Of a stretch of 64,000 nucleotides of DNA, positions 9,500 through 63,528 are shown in pieces. The DNA comes from a virus (taxonomy: Duplodnaviria > Heunggongvirae > Uroviricota > Caudoviricetes), in the IMG/VR virus record IMGVR_UViG_3300043451_000039, positions 1 through 64,000 of that record. One strand, written 5' to 3'. Below the pieces are notes generated by a model, which was not told the origin of the DNA, did not search any database, and saw only the letters and a program-made list of their open reading frames with translations. The position numbers and the translations under genes were made by a program. Every line of letters begins with the position of its first letter. Positions within the stretch are counted from its first letter, which is position 1.

Positions 9500-9672
9500 G
9501 CGAAATGTTGAAAACCCTACAGATTGTAGGGTTATTCGTAAGTTCTTGATTTTTAAACCTTTTTTATTAGGTTTTAAACCCCGAGAGAGGGCTGTAGGGA
9601 CGTTTGGAGGGCGAGGGTGGGTAAACCCTCAGGGATAGCCGTAAAACGTCTCTACGATCGTTTTGGCAGTTC

Positions 9673-9975
9673 TTAGGACGCCATTTTTAGCCCACTCAGG
9701 GCACTAGCGGAAACGACCTCGATACCCGAACCGAAGATACGGTTGTACTCATTAGCCATGTTCGTATTAGGGGTTGCCTCGGATGCGATAGCCGATGCGT
9801 ATAGAACAATGGTACTTTCGGCATATGGCATATACGGAGCAAGTCCAACACCAACACCTTTCTCAGTTTGTTGAATAACAATTGCGGCTGGATCTTCCAA
9901 TGTATATCCAAGGGCAGTCACTGCTGTTTTAGCAATAAGTTCTTCACCATTAATTAGTTTAAACACTTTAATCAT
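9673..9975 (-). CDS. Hypothetical protein (100 aa)
   Basis: ORF in track. The ORF at 9696-9911 nested on the same strand in another frame is rejected. Confidence 0.45.
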   Translation of the reverse strand: MIKVFKLINGEELIAKTAVTALGYTLEDPAAIVIQQTEKGVGVGLAPYMPYAESTIVLYASAIASEATPNTNMANEYNRIFGSGIEVVSASALSGLKMAS

Positions 9976-10217
9976 TTTAATCCTCTATCATATTTTCAAT
10001 AAAATTTGCTGCCTCATCTTGACTTTGGAAAACCTGCATAACAAATTTATCCATATCATATACGTGGTTCATCAAAACTAAAATCTGTTTGTTTTTATAA
10101 ACAGAAACCTTCAGTGTCCAATTCCCCCTACGAACTAGGAAGAATGAAATTAGATTTGGTGATAGTTTTGCTTTCATACAAGTATTTAGGGGAACACGAA
10201 GTTCCCCCATACTTGTA

Positions 10218-10346
10218 TTACATCTCTACATAATCTTCTTTACCAACACCACACTCTGGGCATTCAAAGGTATCTGGAAGTTCTTCCCATTTACCTTCAG
10301 TGACTTCATCGTGGACGTGGCCACAAACAACGCATACGTAATCCAT
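10218..10346 (-). CDS. Rubredoxin (42 aa; two CxxC pairs)
   Basis: Manual translation: MDYVCVVCGHVHDEVTEGKWEELPDTFECPECGVGKEDYVEM. Start overlaps the upstream stop as TAATG. Missing from the ORF track because it is under 60 aa. Confidence 0.7.
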   Translation of the reverse strand: MDYVCVVCGHVHDEVTEGKWEELPDTFECPECGVGKEDYVEM

Positions 10347-10795
10347 TATAAGTTCTCCAATGTTTGTTGATATGCTTGAGCATGACGCTTCTCTACTTTA
10401 GCGAGAGCAGCAAAACGCTTTTCTGCTTTAGCCAAAACTTGAGCAAATTGTTCAGCGTGTTCTTTAGATTCAGCAATCTGATCAGCAAATTCTGAACGAG
10501 CCAAAGGATTCTGTTCCAACTCTGCATCAGTTTTAAACTTTGGATACATTGTAGTAAACTCATAAGTCTCACCTTCAATTGCTTTCTGTAGGCATTCCTT
10601 AGTGGATGGCTTACCGATTAGCAACTCAAGATGACCCCACGCATGTTTGATCTCTTGATCAGCAGTATGTTCGAAATGTTTTGCAACATCTTCGAAACCT
10701 TCTTCACGAGCGATCATAGCGAAATATCGATATTTGATATGAGCCATTGATTCGCCAGCCAATGCACTCTCAAGATTTTGTAATGTTACAGACAT
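10346..10795 (-). CDS. Rubrerythrin-family (ferritin-like di-iron) protein
   Basis: 149 aa with two E...ExxH-type di-iron half-sites (ESMAHIKY...EIKHAWGH; a second pair lies C-terminal). Immediately followed by a separate rubredoxin gene. Confidence 0.7.
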   Translation of the reverse strand: MSVTLQNLESALAGESMAHIKYRYFAMIAREEGFEDVAKHFEHTADQEIKHAWGHLELLIGKPSTKECLQKAIEGETYEFTTMYPKFKTDAELEQNPLARSEFADQIAESKEHAEQFAQVLAKAEKRFAALAKVEKRHAQAYQQTLENL

Positions 10796-11839: not shown

Positions 11840-12255
11840 TTTGATTTTTTTCCTATGTTATATTTCGGTACTAATTCCCACTGGTCTTTCTCTTTAAAAG
11901 ATACGACCTTGATTTGCGACAGCGATGCTTTTTGATCAGCTTGCGTACTATTTAGTATCTTTAACAGATCCCAATCTTGTAGCAAACCAGCAATAGCATT
12001 TCTGCGCTCGATATCACCACCAGTGATATTCGATTCTTTACCGTCCAAAGCAAAGAGTTCTTTGAAGTGAACGATGAAATATCTACCCTGCTTATGTAAG
12101 ATATGGCAGGATTGATACAATTTGTTTTCTTTTCTGGAAGCGATCCCGATGCGGGTAAGAGTCTCACGAACCTTTAAGAAATTATCAGGTTCAGGTAACA
12201 CCACCTCAAGCATGGACTCTGGCGTCCAGTCGTAATAAATCATTTCAACAGTCAT
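11836..12255 (-). CDS. regA: RegA translational repressor; the true start may be the internal Met at 12213
   Basis: FLKVRETLTRIGIASRKENKLYQSCHILHKQGRYFIVHFKE matches T4 RegA (DFLKVKETLTRMGIANNKDKVLYQSCHILQKKGLYYIVHFKE). The 14-aa N-terminal extension is absent from T4 RegA. Confidence 0.85.
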   Translation of the reverse strand: MTVEMIYYDWTPESMLEVVLPEPDNFLKVRETLTRIGIASRKENKLYQSCHILHKQGRYFIVHFKELFALDGKESNITGGDIERRNAIAGLLQDWDLLKILNSTQADQKASLSQIKVVSFKEKDQWELVPKYNIGKKSK

Positions 12256-12635
12256 GATTTTCCACCTTTATATAGTTTTTCTTTTATCATAATCAAGTTC
12301 TCATCGGACAAAACTTTTAACGCTTCTGTCGCTTTCTCACTTGAATACCCATAATACTCTTTAACAAGTTCTAGAGATTCAGATTCAGAGTCTTTCTTAG
12401 ACCACTTACTAAACCTCTTCTTCCTTGAAATAATATTTAGGAAAAAGAAAAACTGCATATCCTTATCCAAACCTGGATGTTGGTTCATCTGGTTGGCATA
12501 GAATACGGTATCGGGGAAATACGATAACCCTCTATTTATTAGGAAAGGTTTATAATCCTTACCTGCTTGCGGATCACTCTCAAATAAATTTTCTTTGGTA
12601 CTGTTTATTGCATTTAAAAAATCAAAGGGGGACAT
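12252..12635 (-). CDS. 62: Clamp-loader small subunit gp62
   Basis: FFFLNIISRKKRFSKWSKK aligns with T4 gp62 NYLMAAVPRGKRYGKWAKL. Sits between gene 44 and regA as in T4. Confidence 0.65.
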   Translation of the reverse strand: MSPFDFLNAINSTKENLFESDPQAGKDYKPFLINRGLSYFPDTVFYANQMNQHPGLDKDMQFFFFLNIISRKKRFSKWSKKDSESESLELVKEYYGYSSEKATEALKVLSDENLIMIKEKLYKGGKS

Positions 12636-12804
12636 ATTCTTTTACAATCCATCGCGATGCGGCATCTTGTGCCTTTTCAATTGTGTGGAAAGTCTCGTAT
12701 TGAGTATTTCCAGTTTCATCATCATAAAAAGCAACGGAAAAATCTTTAGTGATTAAAGATTCAATAGACGCTGTTCGTGTTTCACTTTCATAAAAGTCTT
12801 GCAT
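12622..12804 (-). CDS. Hypothetical small protein (60 aa) inserted between gene 44 and gene 62
   Basis: ORF in track. T4 has no gene at this position. Confidence 0.3.
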   Translation of the reverse strand: MQDFYESETRTASIESLITKDFSVAFYDDETGNTQYETFHTIEKAQDAASRWIVKEYVPL

Positions 12805-12805
12805 A

Positions 12806-13150
12806 TTAAAAACCCATTTCCTTTAAATTCTCAGGCATTGCCATAAATCGTTTTCCAGGGAATCTGCTAGCAAGAACCTCTTCCAATTCTTCCTTAGTTG
12901 CTCCCTGTCCCATAAAGTCATCAGTATCATTATTAAAAACATAAAAGACTCCACTGTGTCTTTCAATCTTAATAGGGATCAACGACTTCTTATGTTCAGT
13001 CATCCTATTATCTATATCAGATTCAAGTTCTTTCAATAGAGAATCTGCTACTCGTTTAGCATGGCGCTCACGCAAGCCCCATCCATAGACAGTGCCAAAG
13101 GCAAACGCTACACAAACAATGACTGCTAGTAAGATAAAATTATCTTCCAT
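12806..13150 (-). CDS. Hypothetical membrane-anchored protein (114 aa, N-terminal TM helix) inserted between gene 44 and gene 62
   Basis: N-terminal hydrophobic segment ILLAVIVCVAFAFGTVYGW. T4 has no gene at this position. Confidence 0.4.
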   Translation of the reverse strand: MEDNFILLAVIVCVAFAFGTVYGWGLRERHAKRVADSLLKELESDIDNRMTEHKKSLIPIKIERHSGVFYVFNNDTDDFMGQGATKEELEEVLASRFPGKRFMAMPENLKEMGF

Positions 13151-15926: not shown

Positions 15927-16733
15927 TTACTTACCTTGGTTTACAGAAACAACTGGCTGAGCACCTTGGCCAATGATCAGAGTTTGTCCCTTGAAGTTTG
16001 AGATAGCCTTTGGCATTTCACGGAGATACTCAGCTTCAGATTCAGCTTTCATCAAAGGAATCATAGTAGGGTTGGCTTGCATAGATTCATTACGCTTCTT
16101 AGCAGTAGCAACCTTAATCTCTTCAGTCTTCAGTTCGTTCTTCGCTTTAACCAATTCGTTGGCAGAAGCAACGATAGAATCAGCAGGAACAATATTACGA
16201 ACCAAGACTTGAGTAATAGTGATAGTTCCATCCAGCTTCTCATCAGCCAAAGTTTTTGTCACAGTTTCTTTTACGAACTGCTCAATCGCTTGACGATTGT
16301 CGCCCATATCCAATGCTTCGTATTGACGAGCAGCTTTGTAAATAGCATTACGAGTAGCATTGAAGATGTAGTTATACATCAGGTAAGTATCGCCATTGTG
16401 ATTAGCGTGGAACGATTTGTTCTTTGTATTATACAACTCAGCAACTTGCGATTGGTTGATGTTGTAAATAAGGATAGCGTCAAAGTCTTTCATTGTGCTA
16501 TTATCTTTGGCTTGAGGGGTCAAGTCATCGATCTTCACCGCAACTTCTTTAACAGGGAAAGTCATAACCGAACCAACGAGGGTTTGGTTAAATGAACCTG
16601 GCAACAGTTCCTCATTCTTAACCTGTTTGTCAAAGCCGACTCGCAAGCCAACTTCACCAGTTTCAATTCGAGTACAGCCAGTAGCGAGAGCCAACAGACC
16701 AACGATCATACCAATTTTCAAAAACGATTTCAT
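15927..16733 (-). CDS. SPFH/band-7 (stomatin/prohibitin-like) lipoprotein
   Basis: 268 aa with a lipoprotein signal (LLALATGC lipobox) followed by a band-7-like core and a C-terminal coiled region. Confidence 0.7.
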   Translation of the reverse strand: MKSFLKIGMIVGLLALATGCTRIETGEVGLRVGFDKQVKNEELLPGSFNQTLVGSVMTFPVKEVAVKIDDLTPQAKDNSTMKDFDAILIYNINQSQVAELYNTKNKSFHANHNGDTYLMYNYIFNATRNAIYKAARQYEALDMGDNRQAIEQFVKETVTKTLADEKLDGTITITQVLVRNIVPADSIVASANELVKAKNELKTEEIKVATAKKRNESMQANPTMIPLMKAESEAEYLREMPKAISNFKGQTLIIGQGAQPVVSVNQGK

Positions 16734-18656: not shown

Positions 18657-19856
18657 TTAAAATGGAACTTCGTCAGAAGGTGTTGCAGCGACTTGCTCGG
18701 GAGCAGGTGCTACCTCTGGCGCAGGGTTAGCAACCATCTCATACAATTTCAAGAACGCATCTTTAGTTGCAGAGTCAAAACGATTGCAGCAAAGTTCCAC
18801 TGCTTTCTCACGCTTCTTGAAGATAGCGTAAGCACGAACAATGTGGATCATACGACGAGTCGTAATAGTTTCATCCACACCACCATCGGCGAAAGTGCGA
18901 CGAATTGAATCAGCCCACTTGACCAATGTTTCAGCGAACTCTTTATCGGGGCAACCGAAAGAGTCCATAAGATTTTCAATAATCTTACCTTCAACCTTTG
19001 CAGAAGGATAGTCCTGTTCAAAGGTTACGGCAAATCGTTCCAAGAATGCTTCGTTCAATACGTTGGTACCGATATAGCGACCATCGTCACTACCCTTACC
19101 CTTGGTGTTAGCAGTGGCAAAGATATTGAAACCTTCAGCGGGAACAATCATCTCATTCTTGAGTTTGAAGTAATAAGGTTTACCCTCGAGGATTGGTTGC
19201 AAGCAGAGCAAAGTGTTTGCTGAGCCAGCGTCAATCTCGTCAAGCAACAAAGTGCAACCAGTACGCATAGCGATAAGAACTGGACCCTCAACGATTTGGA
19301 CGTTGCCGTCTTCGAGGGTTTTGGTACCGATGAGTTGTTCTTCATCAGTCATCATGTTCAAGTTAACACGAATCAATGGACGTTTGTGTTTGGCACAAAT
19401 CTGTTCGACCATAGTTGATTTACCGTTACCAGTTGGACCACTGATATAGGCTGGGTAGAAAATCTTTGACTTGATAATATTTTCAAGATCAGAGTAGTTG
19501 CCGAAAGGCACGAAATTTGGATCCTTCTTTGGGATCAGCGACTGAACATCCGTATAATCCACTTGGAATGATTCCTCAACTTTAGGTTTCAATGCGGCAT
19601 TACCAACAGTGGCATTACCTCGACCATCGATCGCATACAAGCCACGACCGACTTTGGTTGTCATCAACCACTTGGGTGATGTTTTGGTGCCAAGAGCACG
19701 CATAGTTTCTAGCAACTGAGCATTTTGAACGACTCCCTCGGTTTTAACATCGGGGAACAACTCAAAGAGTTTACCTTCAAATTCAGCTTGAAACGCACTG
19801 TCAATTTTAGCCATCATTTTCTCCATAACAAAACTACTTTCAATCAATTTATACAA
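18657..19856 (-). CDS. cobS: CobS-like AAA+ ATPase (MoxR/cobaltochelatase small-subunit family); the real start is probably Met14/15 at about 19817
   Basis: Walker A GPTGNGKST, Walker B LLLDEID, sensor/arginine-finger region, size about 390 aa as in phage CobS homologues. A GGAG RBS sits 5 nt before Met14, and the predicted TSS of the promoter at 19859-19887 lies downstream of the first ATG. Confidence 0.7.
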   Translation of the reverse strand: MYKLIESSFVMEKMMAKIDSAFQAEFEGKLFELFPDVKTEGVVQNAQLLETMRALGTKTSPKWLMTTKVGRGLYAIDGRGNATVGNAALKPKVEESFQVDYTDVQSLIPKKDPNFVPFGNYSDLENIIKSKIFYPAYISGPTGNGKSTMVEQICAKHKRPLIRVNLNMMTDEEQLIGTKTLEDGNVQIVEGPVLIAMRTGCTLLLDEIDAGSANTLLCLQPILEGKPYYFKLKNEMIVPAEGFNIFATANTKGKGSDDGRYIGTNVLNEAFLERFAVTFEQDYPSAKVEGKIIENLMDSFGCPDKEFAETLVKWADSIRRTFADGGVDETITTRRMIHIVRAYAIFKKREKAVELCCNRFDSATKDAFLKLYEMVANPAPEVAPAPEQVAATPSDEVPF

Positions 19857-19947: not shown

Positions 19948-22089
19948 TTACGCAACATACCCCACGAACCTATTGAGTAGGACTCGGGAAGTCTTCTTGG
20001 TATTGAGGAATTTAGTGAAATTCTTAGCAATAACCTTTGCATTCGCATCAGCGTTGACGCTCAATTCACCCTCTTGAATCTTGGTAGAATCTTGAGGGAT
20101 CAGGAACAAGTCATCGCGACCAGTGTTCTTGATGGAAGCAAAACCATTATCACGGAATTCTTTCCTCCAAGAATCAATTTGGTTTGAGTGATTACCAGCA
20201 AACTTAGGTAAGTTGGCATTGATAGCACTTTCCAAATCGCGACGAGCATTGCGGCAGATATAGAAACCAACAACCATGATATCATAACGATCTTTGATCA
20301 TACTCAAGATGGTGTTAGTTTGGATACCTGAATAGCGAGACAACTCATAAGTCTTTTGAGTCACTTCATCACGGATAAAGTGTTTCTGTTTGAACTTCTT
20401 ATATTGACGATTCTCATCGTACTCATAAGATTGCTCAGAAAGATCTCCCATGTTAGACTGCAGTGAACCACCCTCGCCATCGGTCAAAGTGATCAAAGTA
20501 GTTTTCTCGATATTGTTGTTCTTGATGTAGTCACCAAGATTCAAGTATACCCAAGCCAATGCTTCGTTCAGCGGAGTACCACCCATGCTATAACCATCGT
20601 TCCATTGGAAGCGACGATTGATAACACGACGAGCCATAGAATGGAACTCGGTAGTGGTCATCTTGCTAGAGAACAATTCCAACAAGTGGAAATTATTAAC
20701 ATTACTCAGGATACGCTTACCTTCGTGTTTGACTGCTTTTTGACGATAGAACTCACGCTGTTTATCCCAGTCATTCATACGATCGCGACGATCAGTATAC
20801 TGAGAAGTAAAAGCAAGAACACGGAAAGGAATCTGAATGCGTTGGCAGAACATAGTAAGGTTGATAACCTGCTTCAATGTATCTTCCATAACACCATCCA
20901 TAGAACCCGACCAATCAAGCAAGAATACCATGCCATGGTTTTTACCCTGAGGCAAAACAGTGACACGCTTGAACAAGTCATCCTGAAGTTTGTAAGACCA
21001 GATACGCTTCATATCAAGAGAACCAGACTTCGAGATTTGAGCACGCTTATACATCTGAGCCGACTTCTTCATCTCAAACTCTTTGACCAAGTAATTCACG
21101 GCACGCATAGTTTCATTCTTGAACTTCTCGTAGTCGTTGTTACATTGAACAATTGTCAGTTTGTCTTCTTCAGTCATGGCGTCAGAAACCCAGTAAGGTT
21201 TTGTCTCAGCCAAAACTCGCTTGAAGTCAATCACAGGTGACTCATAATATTCTTTGTCAAACTCATAGTAGAAATACTTGGTGTTCTCATCAGCAAGATC
21301 TTCAAGTTGTTTGGCAAAGTTACGCTCAGTCTTAGACTCAAGTTCTTCTGGACTCGCAGCAGATGGGTCTTGCTTAGGTTGAGATTTGGACTTCATAGGT
21401 TTGAGATCCTGATCATCCATGTCATCCATCTGCTCGAAACCATCCATATCTAGATCGTCATCGTCAAACTCGCCATCTGCGTCATCATCAGATTCATCTT
21501 CAGGTTCAGCAGACAATTGTTGTTGCTTCTTCTTTTCCAGCTGTTCTTTTGAATAGGCATAGATCTCATCAGCCAACTCAATAACTTCTTCGATCGTCTC
21601 AGTACGCTCAGCACGATTCACGAATGGTTTCTCGTCAGGTGTAAAGGTAACACCGCATGTGAAGCCAGCTTTGAAGTAAAGGTTGATTTTGTCGATCAAC
21701 AGCAAGTCGTCAAAATTCTGAACTTGTTTAACACCAAAGAAGTCACGATCGTTCAGTTGTTTGTAACCTTCGTTCATGCGCTTACGCAGACCTGGATACT
21801 TACGCTTCATCATCTTCTCAATGCGAACATCTTCGAGGACGTTGAGGTAGCCCATCATCTTAGGGTTATCTTGGATCGGTTTCAGATAATCATCGCCAGT
21901 GTAAAGGGCATGACCAACTTCGTGACCGACAAGCATATCCTCGATCTCAGGTGTCATATCTTTCCACAGAGGCAAAGTCAACACACGATTTTTAATATCA
22001 AACGATGCAGTGCGTGTTGGAGCACGAACGACTGAAAGGTTTTCAGTAGCCAGCAGTCGCGCCGACAAGTCACTTGTTTTATTGTCCAT
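19948..22089 (-). CDS. cobT: CobT-like protein with C-terminal von Willebrand factor A (vWA) domain and a central poly-acidic tract
   Basis: 713 aa with a vWA MIDAS-like motif (VFLLDWSGSMDG) and the acidic stretch EDESDDDADGEFDDDDLDMDGFEQMDDMDDQD, typical of aerobic cobaltochelatase CobT-like partners of CobS. Confidence 0.6.
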   Translation of the reverse strand: MDNKTSDLSARLLATENLSVVRAPTRTASFDIKNRVLTLPLWKDMTPEIEDMLVGHEVGHALYTGDDYLKPIQDNPKMMGYLNVLEDVRIEKMMKRKYPGLRKRMNEGYKQLNDRDFFGVKQVQNFDDLLLIDKINLYFKAGFTCGVTFTPDEKPFVNRAERTETIEEVIELADEIYAYSKEQLEKKKQQQLSAEPEDESDDDADGEFDDDDLDMDGFEQMDDMDDQDLKPMKSKSQPKQDPSAASPEELESKTERNFAKQLEDLADENTKYFYYEFDKEYYESPVIDFKRVLAETKPYWVSDAMTEEDKLTIVQCNNDYEKFKNETMRAVNYLVKEFEMKKSAQMYKRAQISKSGSLDMKRIWSYKLQDDLFKRVTVLPQGKNHGMVFLLDWSGSMDGVMEDTLKQVINLTMFCQRIQIPFRVLAFTSQYTDRRDRMNDWDKQREFYRQKAVKHEGKRILSNVNNFHLLELFSSKMTTTEFHSMARRVINRRFQWNDGYSMGGTPLNEALAWVYLNLGDYIKNNNIEKTTLITLTDGEGGSLQSNMGDLSEQSYEYDENRQYKKFKQKHFIRDEVTQKTYELSRYSGIQTNTILSMIKDRYDIMVVGFYICRNARRDLESAINANLPKFAGNHSNQIDSWRKEFRDNGFASIKNTGRDDLFLIPQDSTKIQEGELSVNADANAKVIAKNFTKFLNTKKTSRVLLNRFVGYVA

Positions 22090-23576: not shown

Positions 23577-24971
23577 TTACTTGTTGCTGTTCTTGCGAAC
23601 TTCTTCGAAAGTAATTTCGTTGATAAGTTTGCCATCACGGAAAACTTCTTGCAGAACCTCAGTCCAACCAAGACCTTTGTCAGTCCAGCCAGTGGGCTGA
23701 GTAACAGCAGAGCGATGCTCACCACCAGATTCCCAAAGGGTTACACGACCAGCCTTTGACTTCTTGCCAGAATCAGTAACAGGATCTTTCTGAACATCAA
23801 CCCAAACTCCGTTGATCTTAGCAGAAGAACACTTCATTGCGAACTTCTGAGTATCACGATCAACAATTTGAAGAAGAGCACCGCCCATACCGAAAGCAAT
23901 GTTATCAGCTGACCACCCATAGGCTTGGAAGCCACCGAGAATCATGCGGATAGTGTGTTCATTAACACCATCACCTTGGATCAAACGAACATTGTTCAGT
24001 ACTTTGAATCCTTTGGCGTTGGTTGTATAACCGAATTTCTCTCCAAGGATTTGGACGAGTTTGCGGCATACGGTGTCAGGATCACCAGAGTCGGGACGGA
24101 TAACCACAGTCGCACCAGAGACGATAACTTGCTCCTTGAGTTCTTCACCCCAGAGTTTGCTTGCTGCATTGAAGATGTCATACGAATCACTCACAACTGC
24201 CAAGATAGAACCTTCACGACCGAATTGCTTCAGCATATTCTCATATGCCTTCACTTCATTGTCTCGCCCCCAGCTTGTGATTGTGCTGTGCTCTGCGGCT
24301 GGGATTGAGAAGCCTGCGATACCAGCGTTATAATACTCACGAGCATAGAGCAAGCCAGTAATAGTATCAGTGCCCATGAAGTTAACCAAGTGGGACGCAC
24401 CCCCAACTCCAGCAGACTCAAGGCTAGATACACCACGAGCACCAAAATCGTGTAACTTAAAATCGATAGTAGAAGGGTCACCAGTTTTCTCCAAGTAGTC
24501 AAGAATAATTTTCTTGATAGATTTAGATTGTGTTGCTACAGTTGTAGGATACCATACAGCACGAAGCAAAGCAGTTTCCAAATAAGTTGTCAACCAGAAA
24601 CATTCTGGATCAGTGTTTTCAATTGTCGCCAGAACATTCTTAACAGGCACCACTGTGCCTTCAGGAACAGCACGAATAACAACTGGAAGGAATCCGTTAT
24701 GTTTGGTAAGGATATACTCCCAACCAGCACGGTTGAATGGTTCTCCGTGTGCAGTGAGAATTTCATCTGCGATATCGATATCGGCTTGGGTAATTGGTTC
24801 AAGTAAATACTCCTTGATGAACGCTTGAAGACCGAAGAATACTGTTTCATCATAGCGTCCGCCACGAGATTCAATATATGAATATACACCAGTTGTACCA
24901 GCTGGATATTGTTTGAACATGCTAACTTTGTAGCTGTCTGTGTTCAACAGAATGTTTTTTGCGAGTTTCAT
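23577..24971 (-). CDS. nadV: Nicotinamide phosphoribosyltransferase (NAMPT/NadV)
   Basis: 464 aa with NAMPT-family length and motifs (NTDSYK...GTDT...DSYD). Adjacent to a NadM-Nudix gene as in KVP40. Confidence 0.85.
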   Translation of the reverse strand: MKLAKNILLNTDSYKVSMFKQYPAGTTGVYSYIESRGGRYDETVFFGLQAFIKEYLLEPITQADIDIADEILTAHGEPFNRAGWEYILTKHNGFLPVVIRAVPEGTVVPVKNVLATIENTDPECFWLTTYLETALLRAVWYPTTVATQSKSIKKIILDYLEKTGDPSTIDFKLHDFGARGVSSLESAGVGGASHLVNFMGTDTITGLLYAREYYNAGIAGFSIPAAEHSTITSWGRDNEVKAYENMLKQFGREGSILAVVSDSYDIFNAASKLWGEELKEQVIVSGATVVIRPDSGDPDTVCRKLVQILGEKFGYTTNAKGFKVLNNVRLIQGDGVNEHTIRMILGGFQAYGWSADNIAFGMGGALLQIVDRDTQKFAMKCSSAKINGVWVDVQKDPVTDSGKKSKAGRVTLWESGGEHRSAVTQPTGWTDKGLGWTEVLQEVFRDGKLINEITFEEVRKNSNK

Positions 24972-24988
24972 GATTATCTCCTAATCGA

Positions 24989-25963
24989 TTAAAGTTTTGC
25001 GAAAGCAGGCATTGGCATAACACCTGTTACTTTTGAAATGATGTCCTTATGGTCATCATACATTTCAATGCTGTTAAGTGCTTCAGTAAGTGGCACCCAC
25101 TTGCACATAGCAGCATCGTCAGCACCATTAGCACGTGGCAATGAGTAGTCAGGGTTTGGGCTGATACGCATATACACTGCCATGGTGTTTCTTGGAATAC
25201 CAAATGAACGATTTGGATTATCGAACAATTCAGTCTTCACAATCGAGCCACGTAGAACCTTCTCAGGAACACGGACATTTGTTTCCTCGATTAACTCTCG
25301 GATTGCGCAGTCGAGAAATGTTTCTCGCTGATTTTTAAAACCTCCAGGAACTGCCCACGCATCTTTTCCTGGGCTGAACTTTCTTTGAATGAGAAGGACA
25401 TGCCCCTGACATTCAAGGACTGCATCTGCGCAGTTGAAGTTGAGGGTTTCTGGGAAGGGATAGTCTTTAAATAATTTCTTTTCATTTTGATAAAATTGAT
25501 AATCACCGAGCACAGTCTCAGGCATATCAGGATCTTTTAAATCAAACATGCGTTGACGAATTTGTGTGGCATTCATATTATATTGCGCTTCAATACTTCT
25601 AAACTCTAGTTCTGGGAACCACTTGAGGTAATCATTACCTTCTTTCATGTGTCCAAATAGAATCGGTGAACCCATATTGAAGTGTTCAATTGTGGCGCGA
25701 ACATCAGACATCCATTGAGTGTCTGAATATTTGTAATCGTTTAGTGGGATAATTTCGTAGTTGGTTATCCGAGCATTATGCAGCTTCAGGTGAAGCATTT
25801 GCTTACGTTCATCAAACGTCCAAGGGTTTTTAATACTACGACAGACGTTGGAAGAACCAACTAGGATGTACAGTTTTTGTACTTGGGATGCAGCCAAACC
25901 CAGTGCGTGGATATGACCTTGATGTGCGGGCTGGAATCGCCCAATAAAAATACCAGTTCTCAT
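24989..25963 (-). CDS. natV: Bifunctional NMN adenylyltransferase / Nudix ADP-ribose pyrophosphatase (NadM-Nudix, NatV)
   Basis: N-terminal nucleotidyltransferase motif GRFQPAHQGH (HxGH-type) and a C-terminal Nudix box (GGFKNQRETFLDCAIRELIEETNV). Confidence 0.85.
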   Translation of the reverse strand: MRTGIFIGRFQPAHQGHIHALGLAASQVQKLYILVGSSNVCRSIKNPWTFDERKQMLHLKLHNARITNYEIIPLNDYKYSDTQWMSDVRATIEHFNMGSPILFGHMKEGNDYLKWFPELEFRSIEAQYNMNATQIRQRMFDLKDPDMPETVLGDYQFYQNEKKLFKDYPFPETLNFNCADAVLECQGHVLLIQRKFSPGKDAWAVPGGFKNQRETFLDCAIRELIEETNVRVPEKVLRGSIVKTELFDNPNRSFGIPRNTMAVYMRISPNPDYSLPRANGADDAAMCKWVPLTEALNSIEMYDDHKDIISKVTGVMPMPAFAKL

Positions 25964-37077: not shown

Positions 37078-37085
37078 TATTTATA
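37078..37085 (-). promoter_or_regulatory. T4-type late promoter TATAAATA (gp55-dependent) upstream of gene 22
   Basis: Plus strand tatttata at 37078-37085 is TATAAATA on the minus strand, about 32 nt upstream of the gp22 ATG. Confidence 0.45.
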
Positions 37086-59801: not shown

Positions 59802-59809
59802 TATTTATA
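59802..59809 (-). promoter_or_regulatory. T4-type late promoter TATAAATA
   Basis: Plus strand tatttata at 59802-59809, upstream of the 59768 ATG. Confidence 0.4.
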
Positions 59810-59826: not shown

Positions 59827-60900
59827 TTACAAGAATACATTATCGCCGTTCTCTAATAAGAACAGCCAATTTGGTTCTGCTAGCGAGAAGTTTGAGATCT
59901 TCTTAGACTTATTATCTGCGTAATGCTTCTCTCCGAACATATCTGACAAAATTTCCCTCATTTGCCATCTATGAGTATTTGGGTTTCCTCGAATTTTTGT
60001 GAATGGCTCTTTTGTATTAATTGCCCAACTTTGAAAATCTTCTGAATTAAAGAACCCATGTATTTTATCTGCTGTTGGTTTGTTCAATAAAACCTTATGT
60101 TCATAAAGAGCAGTATACCAGTCTAAATTAAAAATACATAACCATCTTAAATCAGCAACTGTTTCTATCTTCTTCGGGGATGATTTAATTATTGGGTCCA
60201 AGAATTCTAGAATCTCTGGATTAACATTTGTGTAAGATTCATAAATTGTTTCTGGCGTCCCAAGAGTGTGATGAAACATAGCAGTCCCACCAGTTGCAAA
60301 CATATCATCGGTTGGACCGAACAGTTGATTACCACACATACCACTCACATAGATTCCTGGCTCTTGGTATTTTAAATCATTACGCTTAGAAACATCTATG
60401 TGATATTTAAATTCATTCTTTAATCTTCTATCAAACATATCACCAGACTCAATAATAGAATTGTAAGTTCCATAGATCCTAACTTGGTCTGGATCATTAG
60501 CGAAATGTCTTAATATGAAAAGAATGTATGTGCTGTCTATACCTCCAGACCACATTACATTAATCGGCTGACCCAAATCAAGTAACTCTTTAGCCCTTCT
60601 CTTAGAAACCTCAAAGAATGAATCGTTTACTACATGAGATGGGATTGGGTGTAGGTCTTTTGAAATATTCAAAAAGTGCGGTAGAGAATTGGTTCTATCG
60701 TAAACAGCGTTGAATCTGTTTAGACCAATTTTATCATAAGTGTCAAAAATTTTCTTATCAAAATCTTTAGCCAGAAAAGGAGAATTTTCTATGGCATCTA
60801 AATTATGTTCTATAAGATTTGAAACATGGTGAACATTATAATATACAATCATGGGATCCTCAAATGAAAATAGGGAGCAACGCTCCCTATTACTTATCAC
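59827..60900 (-). CDS. PP-loop ATP-pyrophosphatase superfamily protein (asparagine-synthetase-like / adenine-nucleotide alpha-hydrolase fold)
   Basis: 357 aa with SGGxDS PP-loop (NVMWSGGIDSTYILF) at residues about 117-125, preceded by a domain of about 110 aa. Last gene of a four-gene overlapping operon. Confidence 0.6.
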   Translation of the reverse strand: MISNRERCSLFSFEDPMIVYYNVHHVSNLIEHNLDAIENSPFLAKDFDKKIFDTYDKIGLNRFNAVYDRTNSLPHFLNISKDLHPIPSHVVNDSFFEVSKRRAKELLDLGQPINVMWSGGIDSTYILFILRHFANDPDQVRIYGTYNSIIESGDMFDRRLKNEFKYHIDVSKRNDLKYQEPGIYVSGMCGNQLFGPTDDMFATGGTAMFHHTLGTPETIYESYTNVNPEILEFLDPIIKSSPKKIETVADLRWLCIFNLDWYTALYEHKVLLNKPTADKIHGFFNSEDFQSWAINTKEPFTKIRGNPNTHRWQMREILSDMFGEKHYADNKSKKISNFSLAEPNWLFLLENGDNVFL

Positions 60901-60908
60901 TTTTGTTT

Positions 60909-61856
60909 TTAGTGTAGTTGAATCTTCTCAACTAGACCTGGAGTGAAGTAGTCAGCAAACTTAGCGTAAACTGGAGCAGTAACTTCTTTGAAGCGTGCTT
61001 CTTGTTCAGCAGTCATCTTAACAACTTCAACACCCTCAGCCTCGCATTGAGCCAAGATGTTTGGAATATCAGCAACAGACTCGCGACGCTCTTGACGAGC
61101 AGCGTTGAATGCAGCAGTAGACAAGATTTCTTGAGTCTCAGCATCGAATTGCTTGAAGAAGTCTTGGTTAACGATGATAGATGTCAAGAACAAGCTGTGG
61201 GCTGTATCGTTAACAACTTTGAAACTCTTGTGTTGGTCTAGTGGGAACACACGAACGTAAGTAGATTCACCAGCTTCGATCAAACCTGCATCAGCTGCAG
61301 CATTCATTTCTTCCAAAGCGATGTGTTCTTTTGGTTCTGCGCCGAGCAACTTGAAAGTCTCAACAGCAACTGGAGAACGAGAAGTGCGAACTGTGCGCCC
61401 TTGCCATGCTTCTACAGTGTCAGCCTTAAAGTTAGCTGGAACAACACGGTATCCACCAGAGTAAGTAAAAGACATAGCATGAGTATTAGAATTCTTAGCA
61501 ACACCAGCCAATAACTCAGTACCGATAGAACCTTCTAGAACTGCGTCAGCGTGAGCATGGTCACGGAACAAGAATGGAAGATCTAACGCATGTAGGTCTT
61601 TGTTATAGTCAGCCAACCAAGTAGTATAGATATGGCTCATTTCGATAGCGCCAGTATCAACCAACTTCATTAAAGCATCTTTGGTGATCTTTTGACCGCC
61701 ATTGTATTTGTTGGTATAGTCAGTTAAAGAAAGAACCTCGATGTCAAACGCACCATTAGTTTTCTCATTAACTTCTTTAGCGAATCTCTCCGCTACTTTC
61801 AAAAACAAACCGATAGGTTCGTGGGCAATAACCCATTTTACATGTTTAGTAGTCAT
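60909..61856 (-). CDS. TRAP-transporter solute-binding-protein (DctP family) homologue lacking a signal peptide
   Basis: 315 aa. KWVIAHEP..., FAKEVNEKTNGAFDIEV, LDLPFLFRDHAHADAVLEGSIGTELL and the C-terminal VYAKFADYFTPGLVEKIQ are DctP-family hallmarks. The N-terminus MTTKHVKWVIAHE has no hydrophobic leader. Confidence 0.7.
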   Translation of the reverse strand: MTTKHVKWVIAHEPIGLFLKVAERFAKEVNEKTNGAFDIEVLSLTDYTNKYNGGQKITKDALMKLVDTGAIEMSHIYTTWLADYNKDLHALDLPFLFRDHAHADAVLEGSIGTELLAGVAKNSNTHAMSFTYSGGYRVVPANFKADTVEAWQGRTVRTSRSPVAVETFKLLGAEPKEHIALEEMNAAADAGLIEAGESTYVRVFPLDQHKSFKVVNDTAHSLFLTSIIVNQDFFKQFDAETQEILSTAAFNAARQERRESVADIPNILAQCEAEGVEVVKMTAEQEARFKEVTAPVYAKFADYFTPGLVEKIQLH

Positions 61857-62140
61857 TTCTTAATTTCCTCTGTAGGTATAAAAACCCAGTGTTCTGTTTG
61901 ATTGTCTACATTTATCAATCTTTTCATAACAGGCTCGCTATTATTTATAAGATTTCTAATCACATCCGCACTAGGAAGTTCTTCTTTATTTAGGATCAAA
62001 CTTACTGGGACTACGGTCTCTCTATGACCATAAGTTTGATTATTTGAATCATAGTAGAAGTAATCCTTTATCCTAAAAGTCCCGTCTGGGAATCTAGGAT
62101 ACTCAGATATTTCTACCAGATATTCATTTATAAAACTCAT
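61853..62140 (-). CDS. Hypothetical protein (95 aa) coupled between the rSAM and SBP-like genes
   Basis: ORF in track with 4-nt overlaps at both ends. Confidence 0.45.
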   Translation of the reverse strand: MSFINEYLVEISEYPRFPDGTFRIKDYFYYDSNNQTYGHRETVVPVSLILNKEELPSADVIRNLINNSEPVMKRLINVDNQTEHWVFIPTEEIKK

Positions 62141-63528
62141 ACCGCTACGATTGGTATAAATTTTTTGTTCTTACGGGCAGTTGCTGGCTTACCATTAATC
62201 CACCAGTATATATCTTTTCGATCTTCTCTTAATGGTCCATCAATATATCCTGGAATATACCCATTTGTAATAGTCTCAATTGCTAAAGTAAAGGCAACGA
62301 TATTATCACTGAACGCATTATTACAAGAAGTTTCCCAAAGATCACCAGTCAAGAACATACATGCGCCTTTGCAAAGATGAACGACTGGGCAGTTAGGGCA
62401 CTCTTCTCTATCTCTCCAATGTGTCGATGTTTTAAGGTCTACTGAACTTAAATCAGAAACATGTCCTACGTGGTGGGAAATACCAGAAGGGTTTGTAGAA
62501 ACTGCGCTTACGTTTTGGCAGGTAAGAACATTCCCGTTTAAATCTACTGCGATATTTTGACTGCTATCCATACCGCATTTTTGACCAAGACTTTCTGATA
62601 GATTACCTTGTTCTATGGTAGCAATAAAATCAAAAACCTTCTTATTCACATTATCAAATCTAGTGACCTTACCTTCGCGGAGTTCATTTAAAGAATGATT
62701 TCTATAACGAACTTCTTCATCTTCATTGCCGAGAGAGTTAGCGACACCACCCTCATCATAAGCGTCAACAAATCCACCTTCACCAATAGAAAGGTATTGT
62801 AGGTATTCTTCACCAAGGTTATCAATAACAAACTTCTCAAAGAACATTTGTATAGCAATTCTGCTATAATTCTTTGAGTTAATCATAGCATTGAAACTTA
62901 CTCTTTGTTTAGGAGCAAATCTTCTGAAGATCTCAATAATTGCTTCTTTTGATTTTGGATCATCTAGTGGATCAGGACCACGAACAGGTTGCCCTGGACC
63001 ATCATGCGAAATACCAACTAGGAAATTATACTTGTCTAGCCAGTCAATCTTTTCAGCATCAAATAAACTACCATTTGTGATAATTGTAAATGCTGCTTTT
63101 GGGTATTTTTTGTTTATTGCTTCTGCTAGTGGTTTAAGGGTTTTCCAGTAAACCAATGGCTCACCACCCCAAAACTCGAATGTAGAACCGCCACCTAAAC
63201 CATCATCCCCACCTTCATACCAAGATGCCATATTATTTACAAATGGCTCAACATCATTTGGGTTGGTTGAGTCGGCATGAGGAACAAACCTCTGAGAACA
63301 ATATTCACATTCAAAATTGCAAGAAAGCCCAAGCTGAATCTTTATCTTCTTAAGATCCTTCTTGGACTTTTCTATTCTTCTTAAACTACCAGTTGGTTGT
63401 TGTACTAAAGCATCTTTGATAACTGGCTCACCATTATCCCAGATTAATGTACTATTAGAACTATCATATGTTATTTTACGCTCATCCCTTTTTTCAGGGT
63501 GCATCACACTTATCTCAAATTTCGCCAT
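62137..63528 (-). CDS. Radical SAM enzyme with C-terminal SPASM domain
   Basis: 463 aa. The CxxxCxxC motif is CNFECEYC (residue about 70), with GGEPL and GISHDG motifs. C-terminal auxiliary-cluster cysteines CGMDSSQNIAVDLNGNVLTC and CPNCPVVHLCKGAC (Cx2Cx5Cx3C). Confidence 0.8.
   Translation of the reverse strand: MAKFEISVMHPEKRDERKITYDSSNSTLIWDNGEPVIKDALVQQPTGSLRRIEKSKKDLKKIKIQLGLSCNFECEYCSQRFVPHADSTNPNDVEPFVNNMASWYEGGDDGLGGGSTFEFWGGEPLVYWKTLKPLAEAINKKYPKAAFTIITNGSLFDAEKIDWLDKYNFLVGISHDGPGQPVRGPDPLDDPKSKEAIIEIFRRFAPKQRVSFNAMINSKNYSRIAIQMFFEKFVIDNLGEEYLQYLSIGEGGFVDAYDEGGVANSLGNEDEEVRYRNHSLNELREGKVTRFDNVNKKVFDFIATIEQGNLSESLGQKCGMDSSQNIAVDLNGNVLTCQNVSAVSTNPSGISHHVGHVSDLSSVDLKTSTHWRDREECPNCPVVHLCKGACMFLTGDLWETSCNNAFSDNIVAFTLAIETITNGYIPGYIDGPLREDRKDIYWWINGKPATARKNKKFIPIVAV

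Follow-up and report, generated by a model that had tools for sequence, protein, structure and literature searches.

Results

A DctP-like protein that lacks a leader peptide

The DNA analysed here, called the window below, comprises 64,000 nucleotides (nt; positions 1 to 64,000) of the IMG/VR virus record IMGVR_UViG_3300043451_000039, which is assigned to the Caudoviricetes. Its minus strand carries, at positions 60,909–61,856, a gene for a 315-amino-acid (aa) protein related to DctP, the solute-binding protein of TRAP (tripartite ATP-independent periplasmic) transporters. A first-pass annotation of the window had proposed a TRAP solute-binding-protein homologue without a signal peptide, and both parts of this proposal held up. 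The protein, whose N-terminus reads MTTKHVKWVIAHE, matched the Pfam family DctP (PF03480) with an E-value of 2.5e-43 (148.9 bits; cut-off 23.4), its residue 20 aligning with profile position 13. It also passed the NCBIfam model TRAP_S1 (NF037995; 114.6 bits, cut-off 50) and missed the stricter model TIGR00787 (112.2 bits, 175 needed). Together with the predicted structure, two retained arginines (R137 and R157) and the substitution pattern described below, these matches define a leaderless DctP-like gene with the TRAP binding-protein fold, which belongs to a group that we call the WxxAHEP subfamily.

Leader absence was judged from the missing N-terminal extension together with a Kyte-Doolittle hydrophobicity check, which found no hydrophobic N-terminal stretch in the protein. 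An in-frame stop lies two codons 5' of the ATG (translation '...GN*EMTTKH'), and the ATG itself overlaps the stop codon of the preceding 95-aa open reading frame (ORF) in the sequence ATGA; a longer N-terminus is therefore not encodable, and the upstream in-frame start that might have supplied a leader does not exist. In the AlphaFold2 (AF2) model, strand beta-1 already begins at residue 4. The nearest homologues start in the same way: all 120 closest clusters from metagenomes (82–98% identity) begin 4–6 residues before KWVIAHEP, and 104 of the 121 sequences of this clade, the window copy counted, are exactly 315 aa long. A few homologue gene calls are 3–12 residues longer, and their extra residues are not hydrophobic. 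As far as a coding sequence can tell, these results confirmed that the window protein is leaderless, an export signal not being possible, and because it has no leader it is expected to be cytoplasmic.

An intact fold with a conserved ligand cleft

The AF2 model, built on 104 subfamily sequences, had an average pLDDT (predicted local distance difference test) score of 97.4 and showed a two-domain type-II binding-protein fold, with helix 239–262 spanning both domains. It corresponds to an ordinary closed binding protein with no added attachment domain. In a Foldseek search against the PDB, more than 40 solved TRAP binding proteins matched the model with template-modelling (TM) scores of 0.86–0.88 and root-mean-square deviations (rmsd) of 2.0–2.9 Å, and ligand-bound proteins fitted it better than apo SiaP. 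The SiaP reference used for comparison is the sequence that we take to be the published one, with which it agrees in length and in the numbering of R127, R147 and N187. R157 of the DctP-like protein aligned with SiaP R147 and with the matching arginine of 4ovr, and R137 aligned with SiaP R127; hence the carboxylate-binding arginine, whose loss the first-pass annotation would have taken as the mark of a purely structural remnant, is retained. The beta-6 arginine of the SiaP R147 type is the carboxylate selectivity filter of the family (PMC5812351). At the position of SiaP N187, the asparagine of the 'ENP' motif, the window protein has Ser and the subfamily Ser or Thr, and a near-invariant arginine, R202, follows. 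The pocket differs from that of SiaP in this respect; sialic acid, a 2-oxo-acid and a C4-dicarboxylate, named as examples in the first-pass annotation, would be candidate ligands at most.

In the canonical ligand-contact segments of the phage clade, H12, E13, H75, Y77, T131, S133, G134, G135, R137, R157, T199, R202 and H220 are kept in 121 of 121 sequences and E197 in 120; R160, H100, E256 and R257 are invariant too, and 183 of the 315 positions are conserved at 99% or more. The ratio of nonsynonymous to synonymous substitution rates (dN/dS) between the window gene and 39 related phage copies ranged from 0.03 to 0.17 (36 pairs with estimable dS). The gene is under purifying selection and encodes an intact binding protein; the remnant considered earlier as an alternative is contradicted by the clade-invariant cleft residues and by these ratios.

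Cleft remodelling in the WxxAHEP subfamily

Across 1.84 billion cluster representatives, a full HMMER search gave 151 relatives of the DctP-like protein with E-values below 1e-30, and the subfamily shares the N-terminal motif (K/R)W(V/L)(I/L)AHEP. Among the best 150 representatives, roughly half are proteins of 310–320 aa that start at the motif, and the remaining ones have a clear signal peptide and a length of 330–360 aa. Taking the subfamily's representatives overall, roughly a third to a half are leaderless. The statement in the first-pass annotation that DctP proteins always carry a leader is thus false for this subfamily.

In the alignment of 104 subfamily sequences, W8, H12, P14, F25, P94, F97, T131, S133, G134, G135, R202, H220, T225, E256 and R257 are near-invariant, and R137 is retained in 78%. 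The canonical arginine at the R157 position is present in 48 of the 104 sequences (46%), compared with 96.8% of TRAP binding proteins in general (PMC5812351), and R202, which follows the replaced 'ENP' motif, is about 90% conserved. The partial retention of the one arginine and the near-constancy of the other suggest that the anion-binding site has shifted within the cleft of the subfamily. With the exchange of Asn for Ser/Thr at 'ENP', the new R202 and the loss of R157 in many members, the cleft appears from the alignment to be remodelled at the subfamily level, and the phage clade to hold both the old and the new arginines.

A question raised by this pattern is whether the protein is an enzyme built on the binding-protein fold, as THI5, MqnD and cyclohexadienyl dehydratase are, that catalyses one step of the surrounding pathway. 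The non-canonical polar residues H12, E13, H100, R202, H220, T225, E256 and R257 are conserved in the subfamily or invariant in the phage clade, about half of the subfamily can do without the canonical arginine, and the setting in cytoplasmic enzyme operons (see below) would suit such a role. However, no catalytic motif was recognisable, the nearest structures are all plain binding proteins, and H12 and H220 also align with residues common in ordinary DctP proteins, as in the Pfam consensus. An enzymatic function is, in our view, improbable.

A PP-loop gene is the commonest phage neighbour

Downstream of the DctP-like gene lies, on the same strand (59,827–60,852), the gene for a 341-aa protein, c3, which its SGGIDS motif, PDB profile matches and AF2 model mark as a PP-loop ATP-pyrophosphatase-type protein resembling an asparagine-synthetase domain. 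The mechanically called ORF (357 aa) begins at GTG 60,900, inside the hairpin region described below; the metagenome protein P0300, which has 341 aa and is 100% identical to c3, begins at ATG 60,852, and this ATG rather than the GTG is the likely start. Scans of c3 against Pfam and NCBIfam gave no family match. The SGGIDS motif is invariant in alignments of the c3 family (S118, G119, G120, D122 and S123 in the 357-aa numbering), and the family profile matched GMP synthase, LarE, TilS, QueC and AsnB in the PDB over the PP-loop motif region only. Foldseek placed the AF2 model (pLDDT 84.7) nearest, though weakly, to E. coli AsnB, carbapenam synthetase, beta-lactam synthetase and TsnB9, all of which use ATP to adenylate a carboxylate before joining it to an amine as an amide. 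From its model, we read c3 as an asparagine-synthetase-type synthetase domain without the glutaminase domain.

To survey gene neighbourhoods, ORFs were called in 70 bacterial and 81 viral loci, and their products were clustered by BLASTP. The bacterial loci came from a pattern scan of 185,579 species genomes; every one of the 70 is from a metagenome-assembled genome (MAG), mainly of Bdellovibrionota (Bdellovibrio, Pseudobdellovibrio and Bacteriovorax), with some Elusimicrobia and Polyangia and a few Proteobacteria. In IMG/VR, the DctP-like gene was found in 428 viral contigs, of which 80 were analysed. The results showed that the c3 family is the commonest phage neighbour, being present in 68 of the 81 viral loci. 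Two gene orders prevail. In type I, seen in about 48 viral loci including the window, the genes for a radical S-adenosylmethionine (SAM) enzyme, a small protein (sm104), the DctP-like protein and c3 follow one another; in three of these loci (L094, L141 and L143) the radical-SAM gene has been relocated 3' of c3 and the block sm104–DctP-like–c3 is intact. In type II, seen in at least 12 viral loci, the order is c11 (about 255 aa, no Pfam match), a longer c3 (about 416 aa) and the DctP-like gene.

The type II order also occurs on the bacterial MAG contigs L014, L016, L018 and L025, and bacterial loci with c3 belong to Pseudobdellovibrio, Bdellovibrio, Burkholderiales, Xanthobacteraceae and one unclassified bacterium. 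On L016, genes for an AMP-binding ligase, a short-chain dehydrogenase (SDR) and a beta-keto-acid cleavage enzyme (BKACE) precede the type II genes. L014 and L060 hold this set less compactly, c3 and the DctP-like gene of L060 sharing the locus without being adjacent, and the whole set recurs on a 206-kb phage contig (L001). Other subfamily members adjoin further PP-loop families, namely c17 (motif SGGADS) and the AsnB-like c14. Two contigs binned as Candidatus Saccharibacteria (L012) and Candidatus Nomurabacteria (L013) carry DctP-like genes 74–75% identical to the window protein, L013 with a c3 gene besides; both are probably phage contigs mis-binned into genomes of the Candidate Phyla Radiation.

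A terminator scan placed a GC-rich hairpin with a 10-bp stem and a T-run at 60,869–60,891 on the minus strand. It lies in the 56-nt gap between the two genes, where it directly follows the DctP-like stop codon and precedes the c3 Shine-Dalgarno sequence (GAGGA) and ATG. The hairpin occupies the same position in every type-I related locus (L083–L152), with compensatory stem variants (GGGAGC/GCTCCC, GGGGATG/CATCCCC and GAAGCCAC/GTGGCTTC), and a conserved A-rich, 'ATAAATA'-like stretch lies 5' of it. Probably this hairpin ends transcription as an intrinsic terminator, or stabilises the mRNA, and thereby gives the DctP-like protein and c3 unequal expression. A T4-type late promoter (TATAAATA) was considered as the explanation of the A-rich stretch and rejected, the 3 matches in the window, against 4.1 expected, not being significant. 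Exact copies of TATAAATA lie at 59,802–59,809 and 37,078–37,085 (minus strand), about 35 nt upstream of tail-fibre-assembly-like and head genes, and the third is inside the 95-aa ORF (61,942–61,949).

These neighbourhoods also bear on the possibility that the protein is a free-standing cytoplasmic ligand sponge or sensor, which would sequester a host metabolite or signalling molecule independently of its neighbours, for example to divert metabolism or dampen a defence signal. The high-affinity binding fold, the cytoplasmic location and the strong purifying selection on the gene would agree with this reading; the conserved hairpin directly 3' of the gene could stabilise the mRNA and increase expression of the DctP-like protein compared with that of c3, and 13 of the 81 viral loci had no c3 in view. 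On the other side, the PP-loop linkage recurs in phages and bacteria in varied gene orders, homologues lie within the bacterial enzyme operons AMP-binding–SDR–BKACE–c11–c3, and none of the four cassette proteins matched the PADLOC defence models, except for a generic viperin-core match of the radical-SAM enzyme. We therefore regard an independent sponge or sensor as unlikely.

No DctQ or DctM gene in the loci examined

Neither DctQ nor DctM was present in the conserved neighbour clusters of the 151 bacterial and viral loci, though the host of the phage may itself encode DctQM. In the window, no ORF of 100 aa or more on the minus strand has more than one transmembrane segment. Five neighbours of the type with 12 transmembrane segments were scanned against Pfam; two were assigned to the major facilitator superfamily (MFS), one to TctA and two to no family. 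As candidates for a transporter partner, clustering, transmembrane counts and Pfam scans gave only MFS proteins, TctA, ABC permeases and MBOAT proteins, and none was accepted.

What adjoins the bacterial genes differs with the leader. Leader-bearing members adjoin genes for MBOAT, an AMP-binding enzyme, a 72–80-aa carrier-like protein, c6 (a protein of about 350 aa with a single transmembrane segment and no Pfam match) and an NMT1/ABC importer, whereas leaderless forms sit with cytoplasmic enzymes, either c3/c11, c17 or MFS plus c9. Since leaderless forms accompany cytoplasmic enzymes and leader-bearing forms accompany envelope systems, leader status follows the compartment of the neighbouring gene products. 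The MBOAT/AMP-binding/c6 clusters were seen on the Bdellovibrionota contigs L007, L022, L024, L026, L027, L038, L041–L044, L058 and L062, and the leader-bearing set looks like a Dlt-like system of envelope modification (acylation or alanylation) in predatory bacteria. A three-gene unit of MFS, c9 and a leaderless DctP-like gene was found at six loci of Bdellovibrionota (Bacteriovoracaceae) and Gammaproteobacteria (L017, L019, L020, L021, L028 and L053); c9, a protein of about 200 aa without a Pfam match that by eye resembles a cupin or a 2-oxoglutarate-dependent oxygenase, also occurs in the phage loci L009–L011.

TctC-type binding proteins encoded near related phage DctP-like genes have typical signal peptides. 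The absence of a leader is thus specific to the DctP-like protein and not an artefact of gene calling, and where export is required, these phages do encode binding proteins with an export signal. Such TctC/Bug-type genes lie at L001:5099–6894 and 9610–10536 and at L009:8959–9861 and 12161–13057; a further copy, L009:4462–5358, has no obvious leader. The phage TctC/Bug proteins are better candidates for true uptake auxiliary genes.

A role of the window protein itself as a nutrient-uptake auxiliary gene, that is, as an extra periplasmic binding protein for a host TRAP transporter, would agree with its membership of the DctP family, its intact pocket with the canonical arginine and the signal-peptide-bearing TctC-type proteins in related phage islands. 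There is also a precedent, as marine phages carry PstS (PMC12379486). PstS of cyanophages and pelagimyophages is the nearest phage case of a binding-protein gene in marine T4-like phages and can lie in variable genome regions (PMC12379486), but it is presumed to be an exported protein that supplies a host transporter, whereas the window protein is leaderless and its neighbourhood enzymatic. With a signal peptide impossible here and in all 120 close homologue clusters, with DctQ/DctM not found near any subfamily member examined and with the nearest bacterial relatives outside transporter operons, uptake is largely refuted and, as an explanation, extremely unlikely.

A radical-SAM gene and the host recognition cluster

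Upstream of the DctP-like gene lie the two other members of the type I cassette, both on the minus strand. The radical-SAM enzyme (62,137–63,528; 463 aa) was identified by the Pfam family Radical_SAM, by TIGR04085 and by phrog_1802 (E-value 5e-66); it has the CxxxCxxC motif at C70, C74 and C77 and a SPASM domain (TIGR04085) at residues 318–392, and specific NCBIfam equivalog models were not reached. Its sequence matches in the PDB were anSME (4k36 and 4k37) over the full length and CteB (5wgg). A protein of about 470 aa, c32, is encoded beside DctP-like genes in L013, L022, L026 and L079; by eye it resembles sulfatases or alkaline phosphatases, which is of note as the phage radical-SAM enzyme aligns best with an anaerobic sulfatase maturase. 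The small gene (61,853–62,140; 95 aa) belongs to the sm104 family, which is conserved in phage loci. The small gene overlaps both of its neighbours, with its start on the stop of the radical-SAM gene and its stop on the start of the DctP-like gene (ATGA at both junctions). Members of sm104 were present in 47 of the 81 phage loci and lie immediately upstream of the DctP-like gene also where the radical-SAM gene has moved. The 95-aa protein is conserved over its full length and contains no cysteines. Pfam scans of each member, a PDB profile search and hhalign comparisons were all negative for it, and these results lent no support to its interpretation as a PqqD-like element, a precursor of a ribosomally synthesized and post-translationally modified peptide (RiPP) or a relative of c11 or c3. 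A defence or anti-defence function of the cassette was rejected, PADLOC having given only the viperin-core match.

The window represents a T4-like myovirus. It encodes a gp43 polymerase, the gp44/45 clamp loader and clamp, a gp46-like nuclease, UvsX, terminase, sheath, portal and a gp23-type capsid protein, all of its genes lie on the minus strand, and its GC content is 39%. The major capsid protein is about 64–65% identical to those of Synechococcus and Prochlorococcus myophages, the OM43 phage Melnitz and the pelagiphage HTVC008M. Searches of INPHARED (50,697 phage records) with the cassette DNA (megablast) and the DctP-like protein (tblastn) found nothing above 25% identity. By these comparisons, the phage belongs to an uncultured marine T4-like lineage, and the vibriophage origin assumed in the first-pass annotation is rejected. 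That idea may have come from an NAD+ salvage gene pair on the minus strand, an NAMPT/NadV-like gene (23,577–24,971) and a NatV-like fusion of cytidylyltransferase-like and NUDIX domains (24,989–25,963), a pair also known from vibriophage KVP40.

Contigs nearly identical to the window (L082, L003 and L005) continue beyond it. With neighbouring genes labelled by PHROG, their order is VrlC (DUF4815, about 2100 aa), a small ORF, fibre-like proteins, the radical-SAM enzyme, a 95–110-aa ORF, the DctP-like protein, a 341–367-aa protein, a tail-fibre-assembly-like 111-aa protein, fibres and gp13/gp14. In pelagimyophages and cyanomyophages, the region from vrlC to the neck genes is known as the host recognition cluster (PMC7029224; PMC12379486), in which 'cassettes related to radical SAM proteins' were noted and left unexplained (PMC7029224). 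By gene order, the DctP-like gene sits in this cluster among the tail-fibre genes.

Such a position raises the alternative that the radical-SAM/SPASM maturase uses the protein as a substrate or scaffold, or that the protein is a component of the virion or of host recognition. In favour of it, the gene has VrlC on one side and tail-fibre genes on the other within the host recognition cluster (PMC7029224), the radical-SAM enzyme is similar to anSME and CteB, which modify proteins or peptides, and the stop and start codons of consecutive genes (radical-SAM, small protein, DctP-like) overlap. However, the subfamily is also found in metabolic islands of phages and in bacterial operons that contain neither fibre genes nor a SPASM enzyme, sm104, the DctP-like gene and c3 stay together in the three phage loci with a moved radical-SAM gene, and the predicted structure is that of an ordinary closed binding protein without an attachment domain. 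This alternative appears very unlikely.

Elsewhere in the window, a CbbQ/NorQ (MoxR-type) AAA ATPase gene (18,657–19,856, minus strand) adjoins one for a 713-aa protein (19,948–22,089, minus strand) that has no Pfam match and belongs to phrog_459, labelled 'peptidase'; a gene for an SPFH/Band-7 protein lies close to this pair (15,927–16,733).

Discussion

The window protein shares with the TRAP binding proteins (SiaP, DctP, TeaA and IseP) the profile family, the two-domain fold with its long spanning helix and, in R157, the beta-6 arginine of the carboxylate clamp, as well as R137. Unlike these proteins, it has neither a signal peptide nor a lipobox, and no DctQ or DctM is encoded in the window or beside any relative examined; unlike SiaP, its subfamily has Ser/Thr at the N187 position followed by R202, and a WxxAHEP motif of its own. 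The two features that define a TRAP transporter component, export and linkage to DctQM, are both lacking, as far as its gene and neighbourhood reveal. The nearest concept is that of the orphan TctC (Bug) proteins of the TTT family (tripartite tricarboxylate transporters), which likewise have no adjacent membrane partner. Their genes often adjoin those of enzymes acting on carboxylates (PMC5812351), and TctC-like genes share phage islands with DctP-like genes. Yet the Bug/TctC orphans are exported, the phage TctC-like proteins that were checked having clear signal peptides, and the window protein cannot be.

The similarity to AsnB, the carbapenam and beta-lactam synthetases and TsnB9 concerns the partner: c3, and not the DctP-like protein, shares their PP-loop SGGxDS motif, and c3 differs from them in having no N-terminal glutaminase domain, no Pfam match and a similarity that is weak (E about 1e-4). 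To our knowledge, none of these enzymes works with a binding-protein partner. In the searchable literature, we found neither phage-encoded or leaderless DctP-family proteins nor a pairing of binding proteins with PP-loop or asparagine-synthetase enzymes described. The traces in databases are an unreviewed automatic name in BFVD ('TRAP transporter solute receptor DctP/TeaA [uncultured Caudovirales phage]'), given to two fragments, and the JGI label 'TRAP-type C4-dicarboxylate transport system substrate-binding protein'; otherwise the literature mentions 'substrate transport' genes and the radical-SAM cassettes (PMC7029224).

The interpretation that we favour, tentatively and with somewhat less than even confidence, is that the DctP-like protein is a cytoplasmic, non-transport, carboxylate-binding partner of the adjacent asparagine-synthetase-like PP-loop enzyme. 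From the intact fold and the conserved cleft with both arginines we infer that the protein binds a carboxylate, and the adenylation and amide chemistry of AsnB-type enzymes fits a partner of this kind. The first-pass annotation had suggested recruitment to the neighbouring radical-SAM or PP-loop chemistry, and the comparative data, with c3 in most phage loci and in bacterial operons, favour that suggestion. Inside the infected cell, the DctP-like protein would capture a small molecule bearing a carboxylate and either deliver it as substrate to the PP-loop enzyme or hold the product of that enzyme; the latter would activate the carboxylate with ATP and join it to an amine. This coupling might be physical or functional. 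In the present lineage, the DctP-like/c3 pair forms a module with the protein of about 100 aa and the radical-SAM/SPASM enzyme. Because this module lies among tail-fibre genes in the host recognition cluster, its product may modify a fibre protein or the host envelope.

Several observations weigh against this interpretation. The fold matches of c3 are weak (E-values of 1e-4 to 1e-3, TM scores normalised to the query of 0.32–0.42, large rmsd), and the assignment leans mostly on the nucleotide-binding PP-loop half. Pocket positions of the DctP-like protein were assigned by sequence alignment to SiaP alone, and because the canonical arginine is present in fewer than half of the aligned members, carboxylate binding through the R157 position would not be general to the WxxAHEP subfamily. 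The 13 viral loci without a visible c3 count here too, some of them being cut by contig ends, and the conserved hairpin means that the DctP-like protein and c3 may differ in amount or timing. Finally, linkage of neighbours within one lineage could partly reflect shared ancestry, a concern that the rearranged gene orders and the bacterial operons reduce but do not remove.

A broader proposal is that cytoplasmic DctP-like proteins and PP-loop enzymes of the asparagine-synthetase type form a two-component ligase of a kind not yet described, in which the binding protein would capture a specific small acid and present it for ATP-dependent coupling. Abundant marine T4-like phages would employ this ligase with the radical-SAM/SPASM enzyme to alter their tail fibres or the envelope of the host chemically and thereby adjust host recognition. 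We consider this proposal rather unlikely as a whole.

By definition, TRAP binding proteins count as extracytoplasmic. A leaderless DctP-like protein would surprise a TRAP specialist. Annotation pipelines call the gene a transporter subunit, and under this label studies of viral auxiliary genes would count it as nutrient uptake. Our data show instead a large conserved clade, comprising 428 IMG/VR contigs and more than 120 protein clusters at 82–98% identity in addition to leaderless bacterial relatives, that has lost export, has no transporter nearby and is tied to adenylating enzymes. As the protein is small and its structure is predicted with very high confidence, ligand screening should be straightforward. 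If the favoured interpretation is true, it would put right a systematic error in the annotation of a marine phage gene that is abundant, make the radical-SAM cassettes noted without explanation in host recognition clusters of pelagimyophage-like phages (PMC7029224) accessible to experiment, and give the TRAP binding-protein fold a new role outside transport.

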